Source: Pseudomonadota bacterium
GTDB taxonomy: Bacteria; Pseudomonadota; Gammaproteobacteria; Burkholderiales; REEB80
DNA: 64,000 nucleotides
Assembly: GCA_028873515.1 (NCBI GenBank)
Contig: JAGWIG010000010.1
Span: forward strand, 5,642-69,641
Direction: 5' to 3'
Positions 24,850 to 43,725 of the stretch are shown here, one piece after another. A program made the position numbers and the translations under genes. Under the pieces are notes generated by a model, which saw only the letters and a list, made by a program, of their open reading frames with translations, ran no database searches and was not told the DNA's origin. How positions within the stretch are numbered: position 1 is the first letter of the stretch; each line of letters opens with the position of its first letter.

Positions 24850-25237
24850 GGGGCAGCATTAAGCTGCGCCCCTGCCACACCACCTGGCTCCACCATGCGG
24901 TCCAAGAAGTTGAGATCATGTAAATCTCGGAATGCCAAGGCTGTCGAAATAGCTTACCGTAAAGACTTTGTTCAAGACGGAATTGGTGGAATTCGATGGG
25001 ATGGTGAGCATGACCAGGTCATCTCATGTGAACTATCCGCCCAGGCTGGCGGTATCCGTGCTGGTGAACAGTCTCAAATGGGTATCCAGCCGGATGATCC
25101 GCAAAAGGAATATCCGTGTATCCGAAAGCAGCCATGGGGCGGCGCATTGTGGCGCCATCTTGTTTTGCGGCCTCGTGCGACGGCGCACCAATTGCCATCA
25201 TTCACCAGTATATCAAGCAACGGCAAATGCCTGAATA
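24850..25237 (+). pseudogene. tnpA: IS200/IS605-family Y1 transposase (TnpA) remnant, multiply frameshifted
   Basis: Pieces of TnpA appear in three frames: ...HVNYPPRLAVSVLVNSLKWVSSRMIRK... (frame of 24968), ...PWGGALW... (frame of 24895), ...SCFAASCDGAPIAIIHQYIKQRQMPE* (third frame, stop 25235-25237). A weak HTTW...(YHxVW-like) piece lies near 24875. No intact ORF. Confidence 0.6.
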
Positions 25238-25451
25238 AACTAACAACAGGGATACCTGCGGTATCCGCGCTATTCATTTCCCCTCCCTGAGCGGCGAGGA
25301 TCGACGCGCAATCCCTTAAAATAAAACAGACCTTTCAAAACTGGACAGGAGGCATGAATAATCCGAAATGCATACCAAATTGATCTAAGTCATTTGATGG
25401 ATAAAATTTCTGGAATAGAATTAATTCAAGAATCTTGGCTATCTCCCAAAT

Positions 25452-25525
25452 GACCGCACCCCCGCGGTCTAATGCGGCCGCCCCCGGCGGCCTATCTTGA
25501 CCGCTCCCCGGCGGTCTTTTTTTTT
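25452..25525 (+). repeat. Array of three GC-rich 18-nt hairpins (period 23-24 nt), the last followed by T9
   Basis: GACCGCacccccGCGGTC (25452-25469), GGCCGCCcccGGCGGCC (25476-25492), GACCGCtccccgGCGGTC (25499-25516) then TTTTTTTTT (25517-25525). The last unit looks like a rho-independent terminator. Confidence 0.8.
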
Positions 25526-25729
25526 GCCGGCCTCCCAGAGGCTTCGGACATTTAGATAAAATTCGTGTTTACCCTGAAAAGGAATATGTAGGCCAGTTAG
25601 TTACACTATCAATTCAGGTCCGCGAAAAGATTCAGCCAATAGTACGTAATAGTGATCCAGAACAAAAGAACCATGACCCATCCCGGTTAAAATCAAACGA
25701 TAATAAACTTGTTCGGTATTCTCCTATTA

Positions 25730-25754
25730 GGCCGCCACCCCGCGGTCTTTTTTT
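25730..25754 (+). repeat. Fourth copy of the GC-rich hairpin, followed by T7
   Basis: GGCCGCcaccccGCGGTC (25730-25747) plus TTTTTTT. Same consensus GRCCGC-N-CCCC-N-GCGGYC as the array at 25452-25516. Confidence 0.75.
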
Positions 25755-25923
25755 ACCTGGGGATAAAACAATGCTTATATGAAAGGGCTAGCCAATGCTC
25801 TATCTACATAACATGATAAGGATCAATAAGTTAACATTATTTTCACGACCCATGGTGAATAATGTTCAAATGGATGAGCCATGAACTCTTAGCTGAGCGC
25901 AGCTTATCTATAACAGGAGTTTT

Positions 25924-27465
25924 ATGATCAATAGGCAATTTATGGGCCATAACCAGAAAATTCCGATGACACAAGCTTTAACTACCATTGCTTTGAAGCA
26001 ATTATCCGGATTATTTTCTGAACTTCCCTTGATTATTCATTATCACGATAAATTTACTGATTCCTATCTTACAGTCGATAACCCCAAAAAAAATGACCTC
26101 TGGCAAATTTCGGTCTCTGGATTGGTGCAATCCGTAAATTTCGAAAAATTCGACAAACCCCTGCGATTTGTCATGAAACACTGGTTTAATCATCAACTGC
26201 AAAATTATGCCATCAGTACTGCTATAACCAGGTTTGACCGTATAAAAAAAATCCCGGCATCTGACTTGATACAGGTCGTATTATCTTCACCTAAAACGAT
26301 AGGTTCTATCTGGCAATCATTCCTGGCCAGGGAATTTCACGTCCTGACACTGGATAGCCTCAAAAATATCCTCAACTTTTTCTGCATATCCAATATCGGA
26401 AACTGGTCATCAGGTTCTTCGCATTATCTTTCCGAACTCCCCATTCCTGTCATGGACAGATATACATCCATACAGACTGGCAACATTTTCCTGAGCGGGG
26501 CCGAAGAGGCGATCCTTGTTGCCCATTTCAATGAAATGTCAAAGAATATGATTCACAATCCCGGTTCGATATCAGATCAAACCCTGAGGGAAACCACCCT
26601 TCTTGTATGCTCTTATCAGTTTGGACTCTGGCCTGTCCAGATTGGGATGTTACAGCTGCAGGATATTCGAATCTGGAATGAGGCTGGAGAGACCCACCCT
26701 TGCGTCCACCTGACCTTCAAAAGAGTAAGACAGCGACTCCCGGCCCGATCCATGCCCCTATGCCGCAAGGTTAAGCAGGAATGGGGTATCCTTTTTACCG
26801 AGCTTTACAAACGCGCAGAAAGAAAAGGGCTCAAGGAAAGCGATCGTGTTTTTCAGACCCGAAGCGCCAAGGAAACAGCACAAATCCTTACCAGGACAAC
26901 AGGAAGGTTACTGCCTGCAAGCAGGAGTGCCTCCGTATTGCGCCATACGGCCGCTAAACGATTAGTCAACGCAGGACTTAGCCATGAGGAACTTGCTGAA
27001 TTTATGGGGCATCATTCCGCCCATTCCAGTCAGGTCTATTTTCAAACCATGACCCATCATGCAGAACGGGTGAACAATGCACTTGGAATATTTGACAGCA
27101 GGCAACCTGATGCAAAAATTCTCCATGACCATTTTATCAGCTACAGGGAACTTGCCGCACTCGATGCTACACAGCAAATAGGTGGGGCTCCACATGGCCT
27201 GCTTATTTCCGGGATTGGTGGCTGTAAAACAGGCCAGCCTTCCTGCCCTTACAACCCGGTCATCGCATGTTATGGATGCCCCCGGTTCATGCCTCTCAAC
27301 GAGTCAAAAATTCATGAAAAAGTTCTTTCTGATTTTAGATCTGTCGTGACTTTTTTTTCCAGGACCTGTCAGGGAAGCCTCGATTCCCCAGCCTTCTTGC
27401 AGCTCAAAAGGACCTTTTCTGCCATTCTTGCAATAATTGCCGAAATTGAAATGGATAAAAAATGA
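25924..27465 (+). mobile_element. Large tyrosine-recombinase-like protein (513 aa) with C-terminal Cys cluster, first of a pair
   Basis: RBS AGGAG before the ATG. C-terminal catalytic-domain pattern ...VLRHTAAKRLVNAGLSHEELAEFMGHHSAHSSQVYF (R-H...GH...Y). Box I-like LLVCSYQFGLWPVQIGMLQLQDI. Cys cluster GGCKTGQPSCPYNPVIACYGCPRF. Confidence 0.65.
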
Positions 27466-29753
27466 ACCAGTTTTACAAATCTTTTATAGAGTCCGGTTTG
27501 AAGCTTGCTAAAGACCATGATATAAAATGGGAAATGTTTCTCAGGCCGGATGGCTCCGTAACCAGGAAAAACATCTGGAACCTGACCAAAATAACAAACA
27601 GCCCTTCACCCCCAAGCTATTGCATCCATGATTTAGGGTCAGATAACCGAACCCTGGAGATCCTCAATATCCAACGCCAGCAGAAACATCTGCCTATATA
27701 CGAAAAGAAACCCCTTTCATCAGCGTGGCTTGATTTCATAAAAGCAGCGGTTCTGAATCAGCTATTCTTGCGCAACTTCACCGCGAATCATGTATTGACC
27801 CAGATTTGTCGACCATTACGGGTACTGGCTACATGCACACCCCATGAGCCATGGGAACTACTCGCTGAAGATATTACGCTCGCTCTAGGCATTGCCAATA
27901 CGCTTCAGGCTTCAGGCCATCTGGCTCAATGCATAAACATCGTTACCCGCAGCATTATCGATACTTACCATATTGCTGATATTGGGCCTCTTTATCCCGC
28001 CCTGCCTTCAATTTCCGAGGAAAGGAAGAATGTCCACCACTCCAGGCAGACCTATTCGGGTGACAGGTTTCAGCCCAGCCTTGAAACAATCAAAAAAACA
28101 CAAAGCCTGCCCGAACACCAGGCTTTTTTGGAGCTGGTTAGAATTGTGTTTACTGAACAGCCCAGAACCTTTATGGATCATCTGCGTTTTGCCCAGGTCA
28201 AGATCATGCTGCTATGCGGTATGCAGACTGCAGATATCAGCCTCCTGCCTGAGGACTGGAAAAGACAACAGGATTTTTACACACCATCTGGACAACTGGC
28301 TGGTGAACATGGAGGTTATTCTCAAGCCATGTTCCTGCAACATTTTTTTGAAAGGCATCAGGCAGGGAATTCAGGTGGCACTGCTCTTTACGAAGCCCGA
28401 AAATATGTACCAGCAATATTTGAGCAGGATGTGGTTCAGACGCTCGACAGTATCGCCCGGCTCACTCAACCGTTACGCCAAACCCTGCGCAGGCAAATGG
28501 AAGAAAACCGTATCCTGCCCTGGTTTCACCAGGACGAACTGGTTCTGGCCATCAAGCTCTACCCCTATCTGACGGGTAACCCGATATTAGTCTCAGGTAG
28601 CCCTGACGAACACGAATTTCCTTCACGCTACCAACAGTCTCTTGACCCTGGCTTGTTCAACGAGCTTCACAAAACCCAACTTGCCATGGCTGGTACAGCC
28701 AGGCTGAACATGTCACTTTATGTCTATTTCAACCGCATGAAAGGTAAAGTTACCTTCCGAAAGTCCGATGGCACACCCTGGCATGGCTTACGCATGAAAT
28801 GGGACGAGGTATTTCTAAGAATTGATGAGGTTGAAAATTACCTCGCGCGGGAATCCGCAACCAAGCACTCCAGTCTAACCTCCCTCCCAACGTCAACAGG
28901 AAAGCTGGAGCCCTGGAAACTGATGTTTCTCATGCCCATCCGTGCCTTGATAGAAACTCGCAATGAAGGACTATGTGATATCACACGGTATTTTGCAGTA
29001 GGCAGGATGGATTCGAGAATGGTACAGCACTCCCTGTCAGGAAACCAGTCTGGAGTACAGGGCCTTTTTGAGGCTTATGGCCGGACCGATGAAGATCGAA
29101 GTCTGGCTTTAAATGCTCATTCTCTCAAACATCTGCAGATCACAGATTCCTTTTACCCAAAAATAATCAGGATGGTTCTTCTCCAAAAACTACACCCGCA
29201 CAATCTTAAACATATACATGAAAACCACCCCTATGCTTTTGCAGACAGACGGGAGCAGATTAACCTCCCCAGTGGGGCTGAAAAAATCATGGGAGAAAAA
29301 GTATTGGCAGTTGCGAAACTAATCAAGGCTGGTAAAGCAGATAATCCCATTGTGCAAACCTTCAAGAAAATCCAGAAAACTCAAGGTGAAGCAGTTGCTT
29401 TAGCCTTTCTCGGAACCGAGGCTAGCGGTTTCCATGCCACTCCTTATGGATACTGCATAACGAGCCTGACCTCTGAACCCTGCCCCAAATACCTGGAATG
29501 CTTTGCAAACTGTCGTCATCTGGCAGCCAGTAACCTTTCCGAAAATGGGCGTCATCTCACCACATTGAAAAACCGCTTTGAGAAAGCACTGGTCGACGCC
29601 CTGAACCGCCCAGCCGAATCCATAGGCAGGGAAAACCAGATAATGCACATCAAGGAAAGGTTAGGTGCAGTGCAAACCCTGCTAGCCTCGGTAAACATGA
29701 ACTCGACCATTTTGAAACAACCCCCGCCTGCATGCAGCGAATTCCAGTCCTGA
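27462..29753 (+). mobile_element. Second large tyrosine-recombinase-like protein (763 aa), Tn554-TnpB/BIM-like partner
   Basis: ATGA overlap with the upstream gene. Box I-like IMLLCGMQTADISLLPEDW. AHSLKHL...ENHPYAF resembles HxLRH...Y. Cys cluster YGYCITSLTSEPCPKYLECFANCRHL parallels that of the first protein. Family assignment is by eye. Confidence 0.5.
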
Positions 29754-30803
29754 TTAACGTAAGGTCGAAGGCCATAGGGCATGCAGCCTCTTTTTATCAG
29801 GCTGGTACACCACACCCCTTTCGGTAACCAGCGCTGTCACAAGCTCAGCAGGAGTCACATCAAAAGCGGGGTTGCGGATCGCCACTCCTTCCGGAACCCA
29901 GTGCATGCCGTTATAACCTTTCACTTCACTGTCTGGACGCTCCTCAATGGGAATGCCGTCTCCGGTAGGCAGGGTCATATCTATCGTCGACAGCGGACAG
30001 GCCACATAAAAAGGGATATTATGGCGCCGCGCGAGCACCGCCACCATGTACGTGCCGATTTTGTTAGCCACATCTCCATTCGACGCGACACGATCCGCCC
30101 CTACAATCACGGCATCAATCTCGCCATGACTCATCATGAAACCCGCCATGCTATCAGTAATGAGCGTAACAGGAATTCTTTCCTGCATCATCTCCCATGC
30201 GGTCAGGCGTGCACCTTGAAGAAAAGGACGGGTTTCATCAGCGATAACCGAAATCCTCTTCCCGGCCTCATGTGCCGAGCGAATTATCCCAAGCGCTGTG
30301 CCATGCCCTGCAGTAGCTAGCGCTCCTGCATTGCAATGGGTCAGCACCCGTGCCTCATCAGGCAGTAATGCCGCACCATACTCACCAATGATGCGATTGA
30401 TACGAATATCTTCAGCCAGAATTTCATGGGCTTCAGCAAGGAGGTGCTGAGCCACGAAGGCCTGCTCCTGCTTTACCACACTTGACCAGACCCGACGCAT
30501 GCGCTCAAGAGCCCAGAACAGATTAACAGCGGTCGGCCGGCTTTGTGCCAAAATGGTGAAACCGGATTCCAGATCCTTGCTGAAATTTTCTGTCGGCATA
30601 TCATGCAGACGCATTGCTTCCAGAGCCACTCCATAAGCTGCAGCTACACCAATTGCCGGAGCTCCACGCACCACCATGTCGTGAATGGCTTGAGCTACAG
30701 AGGCCGCGGAATCACAGGCCAGGTATTCAAATGATACAGGTAACACGCGCTGATCTATCATCTCCAGCCTATTATCCACCCAGCGCAGGGTTTCGATCTT
30801 CAA
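29754..30803 (-). CDS. mtnA: S-methyl-5-thioribose-1-phosphate isomerase
   Basis: 349 aa. MtnA/eIF-2B-like sequence (RGAPAIGVAAAYG, THCNAGALAT, GADRVASNGDVANKIGTY). Confidence 0.85.
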   Translation of the reverse strand: MKIETLRWVDNRLEMIDQRVLPVSFEYLACDSAASVAQAIHDMVVRGAPAIGVAAAYGVALEAMRLHDMPTENFSKDLESGFTILAQSRPTAVNLFWALERMRRVWSSVVKQEQAFVAQHLLAEAHEILAEDIRINRIIGEYGAALLPDEARVLTHCNAGALATAGHGTALGIIRSAHEAGKRISVIADETRPFLQGARLTAWEMMQERIPVTLITDSMAGFMMSHGEIDAVIVGADRVASNGDVANKIGTYMVAVLARRHNIPFYVACPLSTIDMTLPTGDGIPIEERPDSEVKGYNGMHWVPEGVAIRNPAFDVTPAELVTALVTERGVVYQPDKKRLHALWPSTLR

Positions 30804-30806
30804 GTT

Positions 30807-31334
30807 TTAATCCCCTTCAAATTCGCACAGCGCAAAAACCTTTTGACCCTTTTCTTCCAGACGCCTGCGCCCACCAATATCTGGCAAATCGATAATGAAG
30901 CAGCATTCAACAACCTGCCCACCCATTTTCTCAATCAGCTTGCATGCTGCTTCAGCCGTTCCACCGGTTGCAATCAAATCATCTATAAGCAGAATCTGCT
31001 CTTGGGCGCTGATTGCATCGGTATGCATTTCAATACGATCAGTGCTGTATTCCAGTTCATAATCGTATCCAATCGTTTCAGCAGGAAGCTTTCCTTTCTT
31101 TCGAATCAGCACAAAACCCTTTCCGAGTGCATAAGCCAACGCCGCACCAAAGATGAAACCACGTGACTCAATTCCTGCAATCTTGTCGATTTTCATGGGA
31201 CGATAACGGCTGACCAGTTCATCAACCGCAATATGCAGACCATCTGGATCCTTAAGCAGGGTTGTGATATCTCGAAACATGACACCCTGCCTTGGGTAAT
31301 GGGGCACAGTTCGGATACGGGACTTAATCGGCAT
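30807..31334 (-). CDS. apt: Adenine phosphoribosyltransferase
   Basis: 175 aa with the PRPP motif ILLIDDLIATGGTA and an Apt-like N-terminus (IRTVPHYPRQGVMFRDITTLL). Confidence 0.9.
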   Translation of the reverse strand: MPIKSRIRTVPHYPRQGVMFRDITTLLKDPDGLHIAVDELVSRYRPMKIDKIAGIESRGFIFGAALAYALGKGFVLIRKKGKLPAETIGYDYELEYSTDRIEMHTDAISAQEQILLIDDLIATGGTAEAACKLIEKMGGQVVECCFIIDLPDIGGRRRLEEKGQKVFALCEFEGD

Positions 31335-31367
31335 ATTGGCTCCTGTTGTCTACCCTCAATGTAATGG

Positions 31368-32255
31368 CTACCGGTTCAGCACACGTCCGGCAATGGCATC
31401 CAGTTTTTTCAGTTTTTCTGGATCGCGTGCGGCTGTAGCCGTGATAAGGGCGTGCTCCAGTGCCCTATGACAGGAACACATATGAGCACTGGCATCTTCA
31501 CCCAGCTTTGGAACAACCTGCCTGACAAGAATTCTCGCCTTGTCAGCATTGTTCATCAACACCTTGACTATCTGGTCCACACTCACGTCATCGTGATCAG
31601 GGTGCCAGCAATCATAGTCAGTCACCATGGCTACGGTTGCATAGCATATTTCAGCTTCACGTGCGAGCTTGGCCTCAGGCATGTTGGTCATGCCAATCAC
31701 GTCGCACCCCCATGCGCGATACAGTTCAGATTCTGCCAGGCAGGAAAACTGCGGGCCTTCCATTACCAGGTAGACCCCTCCTCTTAACACGTCAATACCT
31801 GTCTGCCTGGCAGTAACTTCCAGGATATCACCAAGACGGGAGCAGACTGGATGCGCCATCGAAACGTGCGCAACCATACCCTGGCCAAAAAAGGATTTGT
31901 CACGGGCAAAGGTACGGTCAATAAACTGATCCACAATGACAAACATACCCGGTTTCAGATGTTCATGCAGCGAGCCTACAGCACTGATTGAAATAATGTC
32001 CGTTACACCCGAGCGTTTCAGGGCATCGATATTGGCACGGTAATTGATTTCAGAAGGTGCAAGTTTATGTCCACGACCATGCCTTGGCAAAAACACCAGC
32101 TGATGTCCATTCAGATCTCCGAACAAGAGTTCGTCCGACGGTTCACCAAATGAGGACAATACTTTCTCCCATCGCTGGTTGATGAGCCCATCAATATCGT
32201 ACACACCGCTTCCGCCGATAATGCCAATGACTGGCTTCTGTTCCCCTATGCCCAT
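31368..32255 (-). CDS. mtnP: S-methyl-5'-thioadenosine phosphorylase
   Basis: IGIIGGSGVY, PRHGRGH and GMTNMPEAKLAREAE motifs. Start is uncertain: the ORF opens at 32291 (TTG, overlapping the upstream stop), with ATGs at 32276 and 32255. Confidence 0.85.
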   Translation of the reverse strand: MGIGEQKPVIGIIGGSGVYDIDGLINQRWEKVLSSFGEPSDELLFGDLNGHQLVFLPRHGRGHKLAPSEINYRANIDALKRSGVTDIISISAVGSLHEHLKPGMFVIVDQFIDRTFARDKSFFGQGMVAHVSMAHPVCSRLGDILEVTARQTGIDVLRGGVYLVMEGPQFSCLAESELYRAWGCDVIGMTNMPEAKLAREAEICYATVAMVTDYDCWHPDHDDVSVDQIVKVLMNNADKARILVRQVVPKLGEDASAHMCSCHRALEHALITATAARDPEKLKKLDAIAGRVLNR

Positions 32256-32287
32256 ATGTTTTCCCTGGTTTTTCATGCAGATTTCAG

Positions 32288-34267
32288 TCAAATAACACGG
32301 TCATTGCCTCCATCTACCGGTATTTGTGCTCCAGTCGTCCTGGAAAACAGGGGGCCACACAATTCGGCAGCCAATTCGGCTACATCCCGACTGGTCACTT
32401 CGACATTCAGCACATTGTTTTTCCTGTATTCTTCTACCGTAAGGCCATAGTGCCTGGCACGTGCCTCCAGCACCTCGCAGGTCCACAATGCCGTATCGAA
32501 TACCCCATTTGGATGCAATGAATTGATGCGGATATTGTCTTTCCCCCACTCCAGGGCTGCAACCCTGGCCAGTTGGTTAAGCGCTGCCTTGGAGGTGGAA
32601 TAGGCCGCCACTCCGGGCCCTGGAGCAGAAACATTCTTCGATCCCATGACCACCACACGCCCGCCACGCGGAGCCATTTCAAGAAAAGGATGACACTCGC
32701 GCATCAGCATGAGGTTGGCATCCAGGTTAATACGCATGACTTTATGCCACTCTTCGGTATTAAGCCTATCTATGGGACTGCTTTTTGGAAAAATTCCGGC
32801 ATTCAGCACCAGCATATCCAATCCACCAAACTTTTCAATGGCCTGTTCCAAAGCACGCTTAAACTCTTTTTCCGACGTAAGGTTACACTGCAACCCCAAA
32901 AAACCTGATTCTTTTTTCATCGAAGTCACCGAGGCGTCCAAATCAAGGGCTACCACAGCAGCATTACGTGCAAGCAGGGATTCAACACACGCCTTGCCAA
33001 TACCAGAAGCCGCCCCGGTAACCAGGGCTATTTCGCCAGTAAATTGCGGCAACTTGCCGTCCTTACGCAATTTTGCCTGTTCAAGATCCCAGTACTCGAC
33101 ATTGAAAATGTCCTGTGCCTGCAAAGCATGATATCCTCCAAGCGCCGTAGCCCGCATGATAATGTCCATGGTGTGGCGGTACAGGTCAGCGACAATATTG
33201 GCTTCCCTTACACTCCTGCCTATCGTGCATAATCCCAGTTCGGTATCCAGCACTACACGGGGCGCCGGATCCAGCATGATTTTTTGTTCCCTGGGCTGAA
33301 GTCCGGCATAATCATCAAAATATCTTCTGTAGTTTTCCACATAGGACGCAACATTACGGCCTAACATTGGCAAACGTTTAGTACGGATAACATGATCCGG
33401 AGTGGCAGGGCCCTGTTGGGAAATTACATCAACATCCTGACGTCGGGAAAAAGACATGCTTCTGGCATCGCCATGCCTGGAAACAATGACCGGACAACCT
33501 GCGGCCCTCGAAACATCCAGACGCATCCGGGCTTGAGCAAGCATGACGTCTCCGCCTTTGGCTACCACTCCTGTTTCCAGTCCAAATTTCCAGGCATGGT
33601 GACGTTTAAGATAATCCTCAGCCCGCCTGACCAGTTTTATCATCCTTTCATAAGATTCTCTTGCAGACCTGCCAAACGAGAAGATCCCATGATTCATCAA
33701 CACCATTCCCAGAGTATTTCTTTCAGCCTGGGCTGCAAAACGTTCTGCACAAAGTTTAGCCAGGTCGAAACCTGGCATGACATAGGGAATGATGACCACT
33801 GTACTGCCGTATATCTCGCGTATCCGGGACTCACCATCCTTTGTATTGGTAATGGAGATAACCGCGTCAGCATGAGTGTGATCCACATATTGATAGGGTA
33901 GAATTGCATGCAGAATGGCTTCTACAGAAGGAATCGGGGATAAGGCCCGGATCTGATGAGTAACGAGCTGATTCACCATCTCAAGATCAGAAAGGGCTGA
34001 AAGACTGACCAGCTTTTGTAGAGGCTTCAAACGAACAGGCGTAAAACCCGCCCGCTCGATAGTTTCAAGATCCCATCCGCTACCCTTGACATAAAGAATC
34101 TGCTCTTCTTCCCCGAAGATATTTTTCTCCACAAGCTTCACCGAGGTATTTCCACCCCCATGCAACACCAGGGATTTATCCTGGCCCAATAAACGTGAGG
34201 TATAAACGCGCAATGCCAGCTCATCCTGACAGGATGCGGCATCGGTGTCATTCCAAAGGCTACGCAA
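32288..34267 (-). CDS. Bifunctional class II aldolase/adducin-domain + short-chain dehydrogenase (SDR) fusion
   Basis: 659 aa. The N-terminal half is aldolase-like (LVLHGGGNTSVK, HTHADAV). The C-terminal half is SDR (ALVTGAASGIGKA, NAG, YSTSKAA). Confidence 0.8.
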   Translation of the reverse strand: MRSLWNDTDAASCQDELALRVYTSRLLGQDKSLVLHGGGNTSVKLVEKNIFGEEEQILYVKGSGWDLETIERAGFTPVRLKPLQKLVSLSALSDLEMVNQLVTHQIRALSPIPSVEAILHAILPYQYVDHTHADAVISITNTKDGESRIREIYGSTVVIIPYVMPGFDLAKLCAERFAAQAERNTLGMVLMNHGIFSFGRSARESYERMIKLVRRAEDYLKRHHAWKFGLETGVVAKGGDVMLAQARMRLDVSRAAGCPVIVSRHGDARSMSFSRRQDVDVISQQGPATPDHVIRTKRLPMLGRNVASYVENYRRYFDDYAGLQPREQKIMLDPAPRVVLDTELGLCTIGRSVREANIVADLYRHTMDIIMRATALGGYHALQAQDIFNVEYWDLEQAKLRKDGKLPQFTGEIALVTGAASGIGKACVESLLARNAAVVALDLDASVTSMKKESGFLGLQCNLTSEKEFKRALEQAIEKFGGLDMLVLNAGIFPKSSPIDRLNTEEWHKVMRINLDANLMLMRECHPFLEMAPRGGRVVVMGSKNVSAPGPGVAAYSTSKAALNQLARVAALEWGKDNIRINSLHPNGVFDTALWTCEVLEARARHYGLTVEEYRKNNVLNVEVTSRDVAELAAELCGPLFSRTTGAQIPVDGGNDRVI

Positions 34268-34567
34268 TTCTTTTCCCCCAAACTGGCTTATTTTCTGGAT
34301 TCTTCATTTTCTATCGTAAATCAGGCCAGGCAATCCCTGGCTATACCTTAAACAGCTGGAAAATACTTCGCAAAAACATAAATAGCTCCTGAACCGGAAA
34401 ATAAAACATGGACCGCCAGTTCAACAATCCTGTTTTCCTAAAAAAATCCCATAGCCTTATCCCATGGAAGTTGACACAGACAGTCCTTGTTCCCTGATAC
34501 AGGCCCTACATAGCTTAACATGAACAAACGGATCTTATTTTGCATGAGGATTTTCTGTAATCCAAAT

Positions 34568-35602
34568 TCAACAATTCAATAATTCAATAGATCTGGCATG
34601 ATCATTGCCGCTACATCCGACAATGCAGTTTTTTCCCTGAATTTTAGCCTGGTACATACGTTGATCAGCCAGGCTGACCAAAGCCGACCCATGGGTAATA
34701 TTATCCGTAAGCCATTCAGCAACCCCAAAGCTATATGTCTGAATGGTAGCATCCGGTTTTTGTACGGCAGGGCAGCGTTCGCGAATGAACTCCTCAGCCC
34801 CCTTACCATTTGTATGTGGCAAAAGGAAAACGAATTCCTCACCACCCCATCGCAGGATGATATCACTGCTACGCAAGGTTTCCTGCCAGGCATCCGCCAC
34901 CTGAACCAGCAACTGGTCTCCAGCATCATGCCCATGGTTATCGTTAATCTGCTTGAAATTGTCCAGATCCACGAAAACCAGTGCCAGAGGGTAATGATGG
35001 CGGCGTGCCAAAGCCAGTTGAAGTGCAATCATTTCGATTCCGCTTCGACGGTTGAACACCCCGGTTAACGGATCAATGACGGACTGGGTAAACAGGTTAT
35101 GCATTAATTGTAACTGGCTTATGGACGACAGTATCCCTACAGTCGCGACCAGGATTAACAGCCAGAATACGGCTATGGCCTTGAAATCCGGAATCATGTA
35201 TGTATGGGACGTAATCATTGGAAGTGAGGAGATAAGCAGCAATGGCAGGACAAATGCAATACTTTCCCGTATCGTCAATGGGAAAATACTGATGCCTGCT
35301 ACCATCACAAAAGGGAGAAAAGCATAACTGCTGGCTGCAATCATTCCTGTTTTACTCATCAAGGTGTTAGAAAGTATCAGATGTGAGAACAGGAAAAACA
35401 AAGAGGGGATGGAGAAAAGGATAACGAGGGCCCAGTAAGCATGCTTAAGGGAAATTGCGCGGCGACAATAAAACACCAATCCAGTGAAAGCGAAACTGGC
35501 AACGATACGCCCGAAGGCAAGGTTGACCCATGCCACATGCGTAAACACCAGCATATCCACGGGAATCCAGAGGGGTGTCAGTACTGCAAAAAGACTGGCC
35601 AT
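34568..35602 (-). CDS. Membrane-anchored diguanylate cyclase (GGDEF)
   Basis: N-terminal region of about 170 aa with multiple TM helices, then a GGDEF domain (DPLTGVFNRR, RWGGEEFVFLL). Confidence 0.8.
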   Translation of the reverse strand: MASLFAVLTPLWIPVDMLVFTHVAWVNLAFGRIVASFAFTGLVFYCRRAISLKHAYWALVILFSIPSLFFLFSHLILSNTLMSKTGMIAASSYAFLPFVMVAGISIFPLTIRESIAFVLPLLLISSLPMITSHTYMIPDFKAIAVFWLLILVATVGILSSISQLQLMHNLFTQSVIDPLTGVFNRRSGIEMIALQLALARRHHYPLALVFVDLDNFKQINDNHGHDAGDQLLVQVADAWQETLRSSDIILRWGGEEFVFLLPHTNGKGAEEFIRERCPAVQKPDATIQTYSFGVAEWLTDNITHGSALVSLADQRMYQAKIQGKNCIVGCSGNDHARSIELLNC

Positions 35603-36196
35603 CAGCCGGATACGTAACAGAATGAAAGCAGAACGCTGGCTCTCGAAAACAGCAGAATGCTGGTCTGCGCTGACCAGATCAGCGAATTCATTGCGTTTAA
35701 CAGAAAAAAAAACTGCCTGACAGGGAGATCATTTTTTCAACCCAGCTGATCCTGCCGGAGATTGGATGGTCCGGGTGAAATTCAACCATGATGGCGCCCC
35801 TCCCCTGATATGATGGCTACCCTACTTTGCTCGCCGATTGATATAAATCCCTTTTGTAACTTTTAGTTATCCCCGGAACATTGCCATATGTCAAAGCAGG
35901 ACCCGGAAAAGCACAGGTTTAGCTGCGCTCAATCAGCAGACAGCTAAAGTGGTTTCAGGCATCAAGGCCAGGTTAATTTTATTCTCTATTATGAGCAGGC
36001 CATCCCCGACTTATCGCATGTTCCATTAATTTATTTACCCTTGTAGCCAGATGATCAATGACAGTCCCCCGTCTTACAGACCCATCCACATCCAGTTATG
36101 GCGAAAAACTTCCCATACCACCGGTAACACGCCCTACCACACTTTAAACAGGCTTGTCTGAATAATGAAAACCCTCCAGAAACTTCTTGAGGCAAG

Positions 36197-42951: not shown

Positions 42952-43725
42952 TTATCGCCTGGCAAGAAGTACTGGGTTGATCGCTTCCAGAGTAGTTACA
43001 TACCCTTCCAGATCCAGTCCAAATATGGGTTGCATGTCCCTTGCGCGTTGCAGGAGTTCAGCAGGCGATGGGAAATTGCTGCTTTTCAGGCCAAAAACAA
43101 TCACATTGCCTCTTACCTGCGCAGGCAGGCATAGTATTTTTCCATCAAACGCTGCCCTGATGAGTTCCAGTTTATCCCTAAACCGAGAATCACTACCCCA
43201 AAGGTTGACTGCCACTACTCCTTTGTCACGCAGGGCGCGCAGGCAATCAAGATAAAACAGTTCCGATCCAAGCATCGGGGCCAGGTCATTGCCATCGAAG
43301 GCATCCACAAAAATGACATCTGCAGCATGGGGACGTATTGCAATATAGGCCGCTCCATCCTCAATATGCACAACATGGCGCTCATCTTCAGGCAGATTGA
43401 ACCAGGCCCTTGCTGCATGAAGAACCTCTTCGTTACACTCGATACTCTTCAAATTAGCCTCAGGTATCCTTGCATGCAGGAAACGGACTATTGAACCCCC
43501 ACCAAGTCCGATCATCAGGATATCACGCGGGTTTTCACAAAAAAGCGTAAAAGCCATCATGCAACGGGTGTATTCAAGCTCCAGCCGGTCAGGGGCCTGA
43601 ATGCGCATGGCACTTTGCACATGTGGTGTACCGAGGTGCAGGCTGCGTACACCCCTGTGTTCCTGGACCTGCACCCCTGGCGCAATATCCTGCCGGTGAC
43701 GGATGAATCTGTTAAACATTCGCAT
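42952..43725 (-). CDS. Spermidine-synthase-like SAM-dependent transferase
   Basis: ILMIGLGGGS SAM-binding motif and VIFVDAFDG, as in the spermine/spermidine synthase family. Confidence 0.65.
   Translation of the reverse strand: MRMFNRFIRHRQDIAPGVQVQEHRGVRSLHLGTPHVQSAMRIQAPDRLELEYTRCMMAFTLFCENPRDILMIGLGGGSIVRFLHARIPEANLKSIECNEEVLHAARAWFNLPEDERHVVHIEDGAAYIAIRPHAADVIFVDAFDGNDLAPMLGSELFYLDCLRALRDKGVVAVNLWGSDSRFRDKLELIRAAFDGKILCLPAQVRGNVIVFGLKSSNFPSPAELLQRARDMQPIFGLDLEGYVTTLEAINPVLLARR

Follow-up and report, generated by a model that had tools for sequence, protein, structure and literature searches.

Every cell that uses S-adenosylmethionine (SAM) must dispose of 5'-methylthioadenosine (MTA) as well as 5'-deoxyadenosine, both of which inhibit the enzymes that produce them. 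The dihydroxyacetone phosphate (DHAP) shunt, one of the routes that serve this purpose, is recognised in genomes by a FucA-like aldolase (Ald2/DrdA). Which enzyme would perform the cleavage where the preceding steps of the shunt are encoded and the expected aldolase is missing? This question is raised by four minus-strand genes at positions 29754-34267 of the stretch analysed here (the window), 64,000 nucleotides of contig JAGWIG010000010.1 from a Pseudomonadota bacterium of the order Burkholderiales (GCA_028873515.1). The genes encode a fusion of a class II aldolase with a short-chain dehydrogenase/reductase (SDR), followed by MtnP, Apt and MtnA. As judged solely by gene context, the operon represents a known pathway with a new aldolase variant; that it constitutes a DHAP shunt for MTA and 5'-deoxyadenosine with adenine recycling, in which the fused aldolase-dehydrogenase performs the cleavage, is given a probability of about 0.75.

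In the proposed pathway, MtnP would phosphorolyse the nucleoside to adenine and 5-methylthioribose 1-phosphate (MTR-1-P; or 5-deoxyribose 1-phosphate), Apt would convert the adenine to AMP, and MtnA would isomerise the sugar phosphate to its ribulose 1-phosphate form. The N-terminal, metal-dependent RhaE-type aldolase domain of the fusion would then release DHAP and 2-(methylthio)acetaldehyde (or acetaldehyde), and the C-terminal NAD-type SDR would immediately process the reactive aldehyde, the most likely product being 2-(methylthio)acetate (or acetate). Such an oxidation would drive the reversible cleavage forward and clear a toxic product. Gene context and phyletic pattern make the MtnA product, 5-methylthioribulose 1-phosphate (MTRu-1-P) or 5-deoxyribulose 1-phosphate, the likely substrate of the aldolase; provided that this role is right, oxidation by the SDR half is somewhat favoured. 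The first-pass annotation had proposed a DHAP shunt ending in reduction to 2-(methylthio)ethanol. Comparative genomics strongly supports the shunt and the recycling of adenine, while the aldolase proves not to be of the Ald2/DrdA/FucA type and the reduction is not the most likely outcome.

All four open reading frames (ORFs) run in the same direction, in the order and at the coordinates first described, and each product exceeds the cut-off of a curated model. The fusion gene (32288-34267, 659 aa, TTG start with GGGGGA ahead of it) encodes a RhaE-type class II aldolase, a middle domain and an NAD-type classical SDR; its product scores 1071.9 bits on NF006196 (cut-off 831), with residues 1-659 aligned to model positions 1-657, as expected of a full-length member. 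The S-methyl-5'-thioadenosine phosphorylase gene mtnP (31368-32255 in its probable 295-aa form) follows (516 bits on NF006492, cut-off 437), then the adenine phosphoribosyltransferase gene apt (30807-31334, 175 aa; 270 bits on NF002634, cut-off 170, and 224 bits on TIGR01090, cut-off 186) and the S-methyl-5-thioribose-1-phosphate isomerase gene mtnA (29754-30803, 349 aa; 458 bits on TIGR00512, cut-off 279), which is present in a single genome copy. With the longest ORFs, the junctions are those originally listed: a 4-nt overlap between fusion and mtnP and gaps of 33 and 3 nt. The overlap is probably an artefact of the longest-ORF rule. In the longest mtnP ORF (31368-32291, 307 aa), the model alignment begins only at residue 18, an in-frame ATG at 32255 is preceded by a Shine-Dalgarno-like AGGGA, and the orthologue in Ferrovum myxofaciens has 295 aa; mtnP therefore probably starts at 32255, so that a 32-nt gap replaces the overlap. 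After this correction, the four genes are still closely spaced and point the same way.

The content of the genome (275 contigs totalling 3.4 Mb, with a marker-gene completeness of 100%) leaves little choice of enzyme for the MtnA product. The fusion is the only protein of the class II aldolase family (PF00596) in the whole genome. The absence of mtnB, mtnC and mtnD that had been remarked for the window holds genome-wide, where no MtnB, MtnC, MtnD (acireductone dioxygenase, ARD) or RuBisCO-like protein is found. Genes of rhamnose metabolism are likewise missing from the genome: there is no rhamnose isomerase RhaA (PF06134), and tblastn with RhaA, RhaB, RhaD, RhaM, MtnK, Ald2, FucA and FucO from Escherichia coli ATCC 25922 returns no matches, while MtnA from the same strain retrieves the mtnA of the window only. 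Because of this combination of a single PF00596 protein, no MtnB, MtnC, ARD or RuBisCO-like protein, and negative tblastn searches, the MtnA product has no other candidate enzyme in the genome.

Three members of the purine nucleoside phosphorylase family are encoded, namely MtnP, a methylthioinosine-type phosphorylase (358 bits on NF006599, cut-off 223) beside a hypoxanthine-guanine phosphoribosyltransferase (Hpt), and the hopanoid-associated HpnG; a Pfs-type nucleosidase is absent from the genome. The second phosphorylase/phosphoribosyltransferase pair lies elsewhere in the genome (locus L088, G000:C13:96289-99999), where the two genes overlap (ORFs 938-1498 and 1495-2244). This pair mirrors mtnP-apt and implies a deaminase route also feeding MtnA. 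The sole spermine/spermidine-synthase-like gene of the genome is located in the window itself (42952-43725, minus strand; a weak match to PF01564, 29 bits).

The sequence of the fusion places it apart from the known enzymes of either pathway. It scores 421 bits on TIGR02632, the model of the rhamnose enzyme RhaEW (cut-off 567.75), and 15.9 bits on the MtnB model TIGR03328 (cut-off 137), and its aldolase half matches the classical aldolase models with E-values of 1e-6 or weaker. In the aldolase-domain tree, a very long branch leads to a single clade (support 100) of all fusion-type halves, which lies apart from E. coli FucA, Ald2, RhaD and AraD-like proteins, so that the aldolase half lies outside the Ald2/DrdA clade. 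In the full-length tree, the RhaEW proteins above the TIGR02632 cut-off and the NF006196 proteins constitute two sister clades, each with support 100, and the fusion is not nested in RhaEW. The two placements that would have spoken against the initial proposal, with MtnB or with RhaEW beside rhamnose genes, are thus not observed. The mtnA-linked members of the NF006196 clade form a basal, paraphyletic set, within which gammaproteobacterial, cyanobacterial and verrucomicrobial members without the link are nested. On these sequence grounds, the aldolase is a non-orthologous replacement of RhaE type and not a fusion of known shunt enzymes. NF006196 (PRK08324.2-4) carries no functional annotation. 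At least 8,000 protein clusters (90% identity) are related to the fusion at E <= 1e-100. As anticipated by the first-pass annotation, close homologues are commonly labelled as rhamnose enzymes, the name given by the Joint Genome Institute being 'rhamnose utilization protein RhaD (predicted bifunctional aldolase and dehydrogenase)'; in NCBI they go under 'bifunctional aldolase/short-chain dehydrogenase'.

Genomes of the same order (41 relatives, nearly all from different families) show what otherwise occupies the position of the fusion. A RhaE-type gene is present in 11 of them, as a full fusion above the NF006196 cut-off in seven, broken across contig ends in one and as a version of about 500 aa in three; in all ten relatives with an assembled flank, mtnA is its immediate neighbour in the same orientation. 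Another 13 relatives have mtnA, and in 11 of these a FucA-like aldolase of 212-236 aa adjoins it or belongs to the same operon. Two genomes (G030 and G038) carry mtnP, an Ald2-like gene, apt and mtnA, with MtnP, Apt and MtnA 71-80% identical to those of the window; theirs is the window's operon with another aldolase. E. coli FucA and the experimentally characterised Ald2 share a group (support 97) of the aldolase-domain tree with nine of ten such small mtnA-adjacent proteins; the small aldolases score best on fuculose-phosphate aldolase models. An MtnB-type function for these small proteins was considered and rejected, as all fall far below the MtnB cut-off and no ARD accompanies them. None of the 41 relatives has an MtnB above the cut-off or any ARD domain; for this reason the order appears to use the DHAP shunt and not the canonical pathway, one genomic slot being filled by either of two aldolases that look unrelated. 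The alternation between the RhaE-type fusion and the Ald2-like gene is a non-orthologous displacement of the DHAP-shunt aldolase, and in the window the fusion would fill the slot of the small FucA/Ald2-like enzyme.

Beyond the order, 80 loci of NF006196 type from public genomes were surveyed for mtn genes within 8 kb. The full four-gene order is repeated in three of them (L007, L008 and L009), and in about 13 more the fusion is followed by mtnA. An identical four-gene operon is found in the cultured organism Ferrovum myxofaciens, and the place of apt within the operon is shared by L007-L009, Ferrovum, G030 and G038. Linkage to mtnA extends to Opitutaceae (L061) and Roseivirgaceae (L082), whose mtnA genes belong to divergent lineages. 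The four-gene arrangement is not due to chance, since the order recurs in L007-L009 and Ferrovum and the aldolase adjoins mtnA in 10/10 relatives. In five genomes the fusion and mtnA are unlinked; each of these has a single mtnA at another site, and three of them encode no PF00596 protein besides the fusion. In a sample of 201 genomes of the phylum, an NF006196 protein occurs in 21 (about 10%), and mtnA is found in 20 of these 21 versus 108 of the 180 genomes without it (the exceptional genome is 69% complete); as related genomes are not independent, the association is overstated and serves as supportive evidence only.

Two further neighbourhoods were noted in the course of these surveys. A sister fusion subfamily, scoring about 530-543 bits on NF006196 and under every cut-off tested, occurs 5-9 kb from mtnA (G154:C1:638561-646825; also in G103, G122, G134 and G221); the genomes belong to one family, are large (6.1-6.8 Mb) and encode a true RhaEW elsewhere. 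The mtn link may extend to sister subfamilies. In nine gammaproteobacterial loci, mostly from metagenome-assembled genomes (MAGs), a conserved protein of about 280 aa that belongs to no Pfam family is encoded after the fusion in the same orientation (e.g., L043, 4794-5636).

The fusion protein has three parts. The aldolase domain (aa 1-222; 33602-34267, minus strand) matches PF00596 at residues 21-219 and contains the motifs GGGNTS (37-42), KGSG (61-64), Asp-His130-Thr-His132 and His193-Gly. These four motifs are invariant in 101 family members, including forms lacking the SDR. The SDR domain (aa 406-659; 32291-33052, minus strand; PF00106 and PF13561, the match spanning residues 413-654) holds the glycine motif TGAASGIG (417-424), Asp442 and the tetrad Asn514, Ser543, Tyr556 and Lys560, all invariant in full-length members, as is typical of classical SDRs. 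Asp442, situated at the end of strand β2, indicates a preference for NAD over NADP. Between the two lies an α/β region specific to the fusion family (aa 223-405; 33053-33601, minus strand), which is covered by NF006196 and its sister models. The AlphaFold model of the fusion has a predicted local distance difference test score (pLDDT) of 88.5 and a predicted template modelling score of 0.87. Its middle region is mostly confident, the 10-residue pLDDT means lying mostly at 85-97 except around residues 231-240, 321-330 and 391-400, where they fall to 70-75. The closest solved structure to the aldolase half is PDB ID: 3m4r (E 4.6e-47, 41% identity, TM-score 0.93 by fold), the N-terminal class II aldolase domain of a conserved Thermoplasma acidophilum protein from structural genomics, to which no function or ligand has been assigned. 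By Foldseek, SDRs with bound NAD(H) are matched by the SDR domain. The best 50 Foldseek matches are all either 3m4r (N-terminal domain) or SDRs; among them, no solved structure spans the full length of the fusion and no solved relative of the middle 180 or so residues is found.

The shortened versions of the gene are informative as to which half is tied to the operon. In three relatives (G019, G035 and G036; loci L108, 6080-7582, L109, 6041-7582, and L110), proteins of 500-513 aa retain all aldolase motifs, have lost the SDR glycine motif and catalytic residues, and are still encoded next to mtnA. As these SDR-decayed forms persist beside mtnA, the dehydrogenase half is dispensable; the aldolase, whose motifs are invariant even in the SDR-less neighbours of mtnA, is the activity tied to MtnA.

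Comparison with the two characterised systems shows what is shared and what is new. The DHAP shunt of Rhodospirillum rubrum, Rhodopseudomonas palustris, Bacillus thuringiensis and E. coli ATCC 25922 employs MtnP (or MtnN with MtnK), MtnA, Ald2/DrdA (EC 4.1.2.62) and a separate alcohol dehydrogenase. The window resembles it in encoding the nucleoside phosphorylase MtnP and an MtnA-type isomerase as the first two enzymes, in the operon clustering of the isomerase with an aldolase predicted to cleave a ribulose 1-phosphate to DHAP and a C2 aldehyde, and in the absence of MtnB, MtnC, MtnD and a RuBisCO-like protein. It differs in that the aldolase is of RhaE type and not the single-domain FucA/Ald2/DrdA protein of about 215 aa, in the fused SDR with a probable oxidation, and in the presence of apt within the operon. 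RhaEW (Bacillus subtilis YuxG and Chloroflexus aurantiacus Caur_2283; TIGR02632) is an L-rhamnulose-1-phosphate aldolase/L-lactaldehyde dehydrogenase (PMC3870299). With this enzyme the fusion shares the three-part architecture, the invariant aldolase and SDR motifs, the NAD-type Asp and, as predicted here, the cleavage of a ketose 1-phosphate followed by conversion of the aldehyde by the fused SDR. In contrast to RhaEW, it belongs to a separate subfamily, is accompanied by mtnP, apt and mtnA, and has no rha genes nearby or elsewhere in the genome, although RhaEW is stated to be 'always' encoded in rhamnose utilisation loci (PMC3870299). Clade-specific residues near the motifs also distinguish the window fusion from RhaEW (Trp65 versus Gly, Thr131 versus Met/Val, Phe198 versus Trp, and Leu488 versus Ser). 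In the full-text literature covered, which did not include one key survey of shunt clusters, no paper links RhaEW/YuxG-type fusions to the DHAP shunt or to salvage of MTA or 5'-deoxyadenosine.

Several observations weigh against an MTA/5'-deoxyadenosine shunt run by this family. About 60 of the 80 NF006196 loci have no mtn gene within 8 kb, and mtnA is common in the phylum sample (64%), so that co-occurrence alone is a weak argument. In a Bacteroidota clade, a phosphoenolpyruvate hydrolase-like gene (PF09370) and a UPF0261 gene come after the fusion in the same orientation (L069, 10622-11485 and 11838-13070, and 12 and 10 further loci, respectively); this part of the NF006196 family may act on something else or have an extended role. 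Closer to the window, a smaller genome of the same genus (G001, 1.9 Mb versus 3.4 Mb) and a genome of the same family (G002) have neither the fusion nor mtnA; as G001 lacks both, the operon is dispensable and variable within the lineage. Because the sole spermidine-synthase-like gene is a weak match, the size of the MTA flux is in doubt; MTA may come chiefly from sources other than polyamine synthesis in this organism, and 5'-deoxyadenosine may be the main substrate. Lastly, all characterised DHAP shunts end in reduction to an alcohol, 2-(methylthio)ethanol or ethanol (PMC10986504).

This last point leads to the direction of the SDR reaction. With the pathway and the role of the aldolase unchanged, the SDR might reduce the aldehyde with NAD(P)H to give 2-(methylthio)ethanol or ethanol, the outcome established for the shunt of R. 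rubrum, R. palustris and E. coli ATCC 25922. Most SDRs are ketone/aldehyde reductases or alcohol dehydrogenases, carbonyl reductases and hydroxy-acid dehydrogenases provide the nearest solved folds, and the alcohol is the known entry point to sulfur salvage through methanethiol and ethylene. However, RhaEW, the one member of the fusion family to have been characterised, uses NAD+ to oxidise lactaldehyde to lactate, is inactive with NADH, and in the absence of NAD+ releases neither DHAP nor lactate (PMC3870299). Since this relative requires NAD+ and Asp442, an indicator of NAD and not NADP, is invariant, oxidation is preferred; it would also make the cleavage irreversible, giving a reason for the fusion. 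Reduction is accordingly regarded as possible though rather unlikely. The substrate range might also be narrower than proposed, the operon serving 5'-deoxyadenosine only (5-deoxyribulose 1-phosphate to DHAP and acetate), with MTA scarcely made or handled mainly by the methylthioinosine phosphorylase and Hpt. The universal occurrence of radical SAM enzymes, set against a sole and weakly matching spermidine-synthase-like gene, would fit this restriction, as would the second phosphorylase beside hpt and the usefulness of acetate, no fate being known for 2-(methylthio)acetate. Nevertheless, MtnP scores well above the equivalog cut-off for MTA phosphorylases, known shunt enzymes accept both substrates (PMC6079011, PMC10986504), and the methylthioinosine route also yields MTR-1-P, which would still need MtnA and an aldolase; an exclusive role in 5'-deoxyadenosine salvage thus looks unlikely.

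Other explanations concern the aldolase itself. MtnB and class II aldolases share a fold and a metal site, and MtnB and DEP1 have a promiscuous aldolase activity (PMC6079011, PMC8102628); the fusion could then act on the MtnA product in another manner, such as an MtnB-like dehydration or a rearrangement coupled to a redox step, on an undescribed route to methionine. The genome has no other way of recovering the methylthio group, and the family-specific middle domain has no assigned role. Yet RhaE is a demonstrated aldolase (PMC3870299), no MtnC, MtnD or RuBisCO-like protein is encoded in the genome to continue such a route, and in related operons the slot is held by FucA/Ald2-like aldolases and not by MtnB, which makes this proposal quite improbable. 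Hardly any credence can be given to the fusion being an aldolase/dehydrogenase for a 6-deoxyhexose (of rhamnose or fucose type) or another sugar phosphate, whose place beside mtnP, apt and mtnA would be meaningless. The domain architecture and all catalytic motifs are indeed common to RhaEW, and many family members are not mtn-linked; on the other hand, the fusion falls short of the RhaEW cut-off (421 versus 568 bits) in a clade of its own, the genome has neither RhaA nor tblastn matches to RhaA, RhaB, RhaD, RhaM or FucA, the adjacency to mtnA, constant among the ten relatives, recurs in several phyla, and the gene alternates with Ald2-like genes in the same operon. A DHAP shunt with a RhaE-type aldolase therefore remains the preferred reading.

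As to the surroundings of the operon, a terminator-like hairpin with a T-run (34447-34469, minus strand, from a consensus scan only) follows the upstream GGDEF gene. Since it parts this gene from the operon, it suggests that the operon has its own start, and the promoter should lie within 34268-34446. A scan for sigma-70-like promoters gave six sites versus 6.7 expected by chance, none of them above chance. The Rfam scan of 29000-36000 (E <= 1) detected no SAM or S-adenosylhomocysteine riboswitch, the sole match being a chance miRNA-like one. On the other side, a run of plus-strand genes (24895-29753) ends exactly at the mtnA stop codon. It encodes a 131-aa ORF without a family match, a 513-aa tyrosine-recombinase-like protein (weak PF00589; NF041502) and a 763-aa protein without a Pfam match, whose nearest Atlas clusters are named integrases, including 'gamma-mobile-trio integrase GmtZ'. 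The run looks like a recombinase-trio mobile element abutting the mtn operon. An origin of the contig from a chimeric MAG bin was ruled out, as the ProS of the window is 78% identical to that of the same-genus genome G001 versus 62-64% to those of other families.

For the family as a whole, Ald2-based surveys have concluded that organisms without Ald2, such as cyanobacteria, 'must employ another pathway' (PMC8102628). Tentatively, and with the odds slightly unfavourable, NF006196 (perhaps together with the sister subfamilies near mtnA) could be the missing MTA/5'-deoxyadenosine aldolase of many bacteria that have mtnP and mtnA without Ald2 or MtnB, among them iron- and sulfur-oxidising Proteobacteria, symbionts, Opitutae and some cyanobacteria, with the cleavage obligatorily coupled to NAD+-dependent oxidation and yielding DHAP, NADH and acetate or 2-(methylthio)acetate. 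Gene context in this way proposes a function for NF006196, at least for its proteobacterial branch. If the fusion is the shunt aldolase, many genome-scale metabolic reconstructions would gain a complete salvage route, and a widespread misannotation, as a rhamnose enzyme or as a protein without function, could be corrected. The fate of the methylthio group may then differ from the known route through the alcohol, methanethiol and ethylene, and 2-(methylthio)acetate would be a sulfur end product not so far tied to the salvage of SAM by-products.

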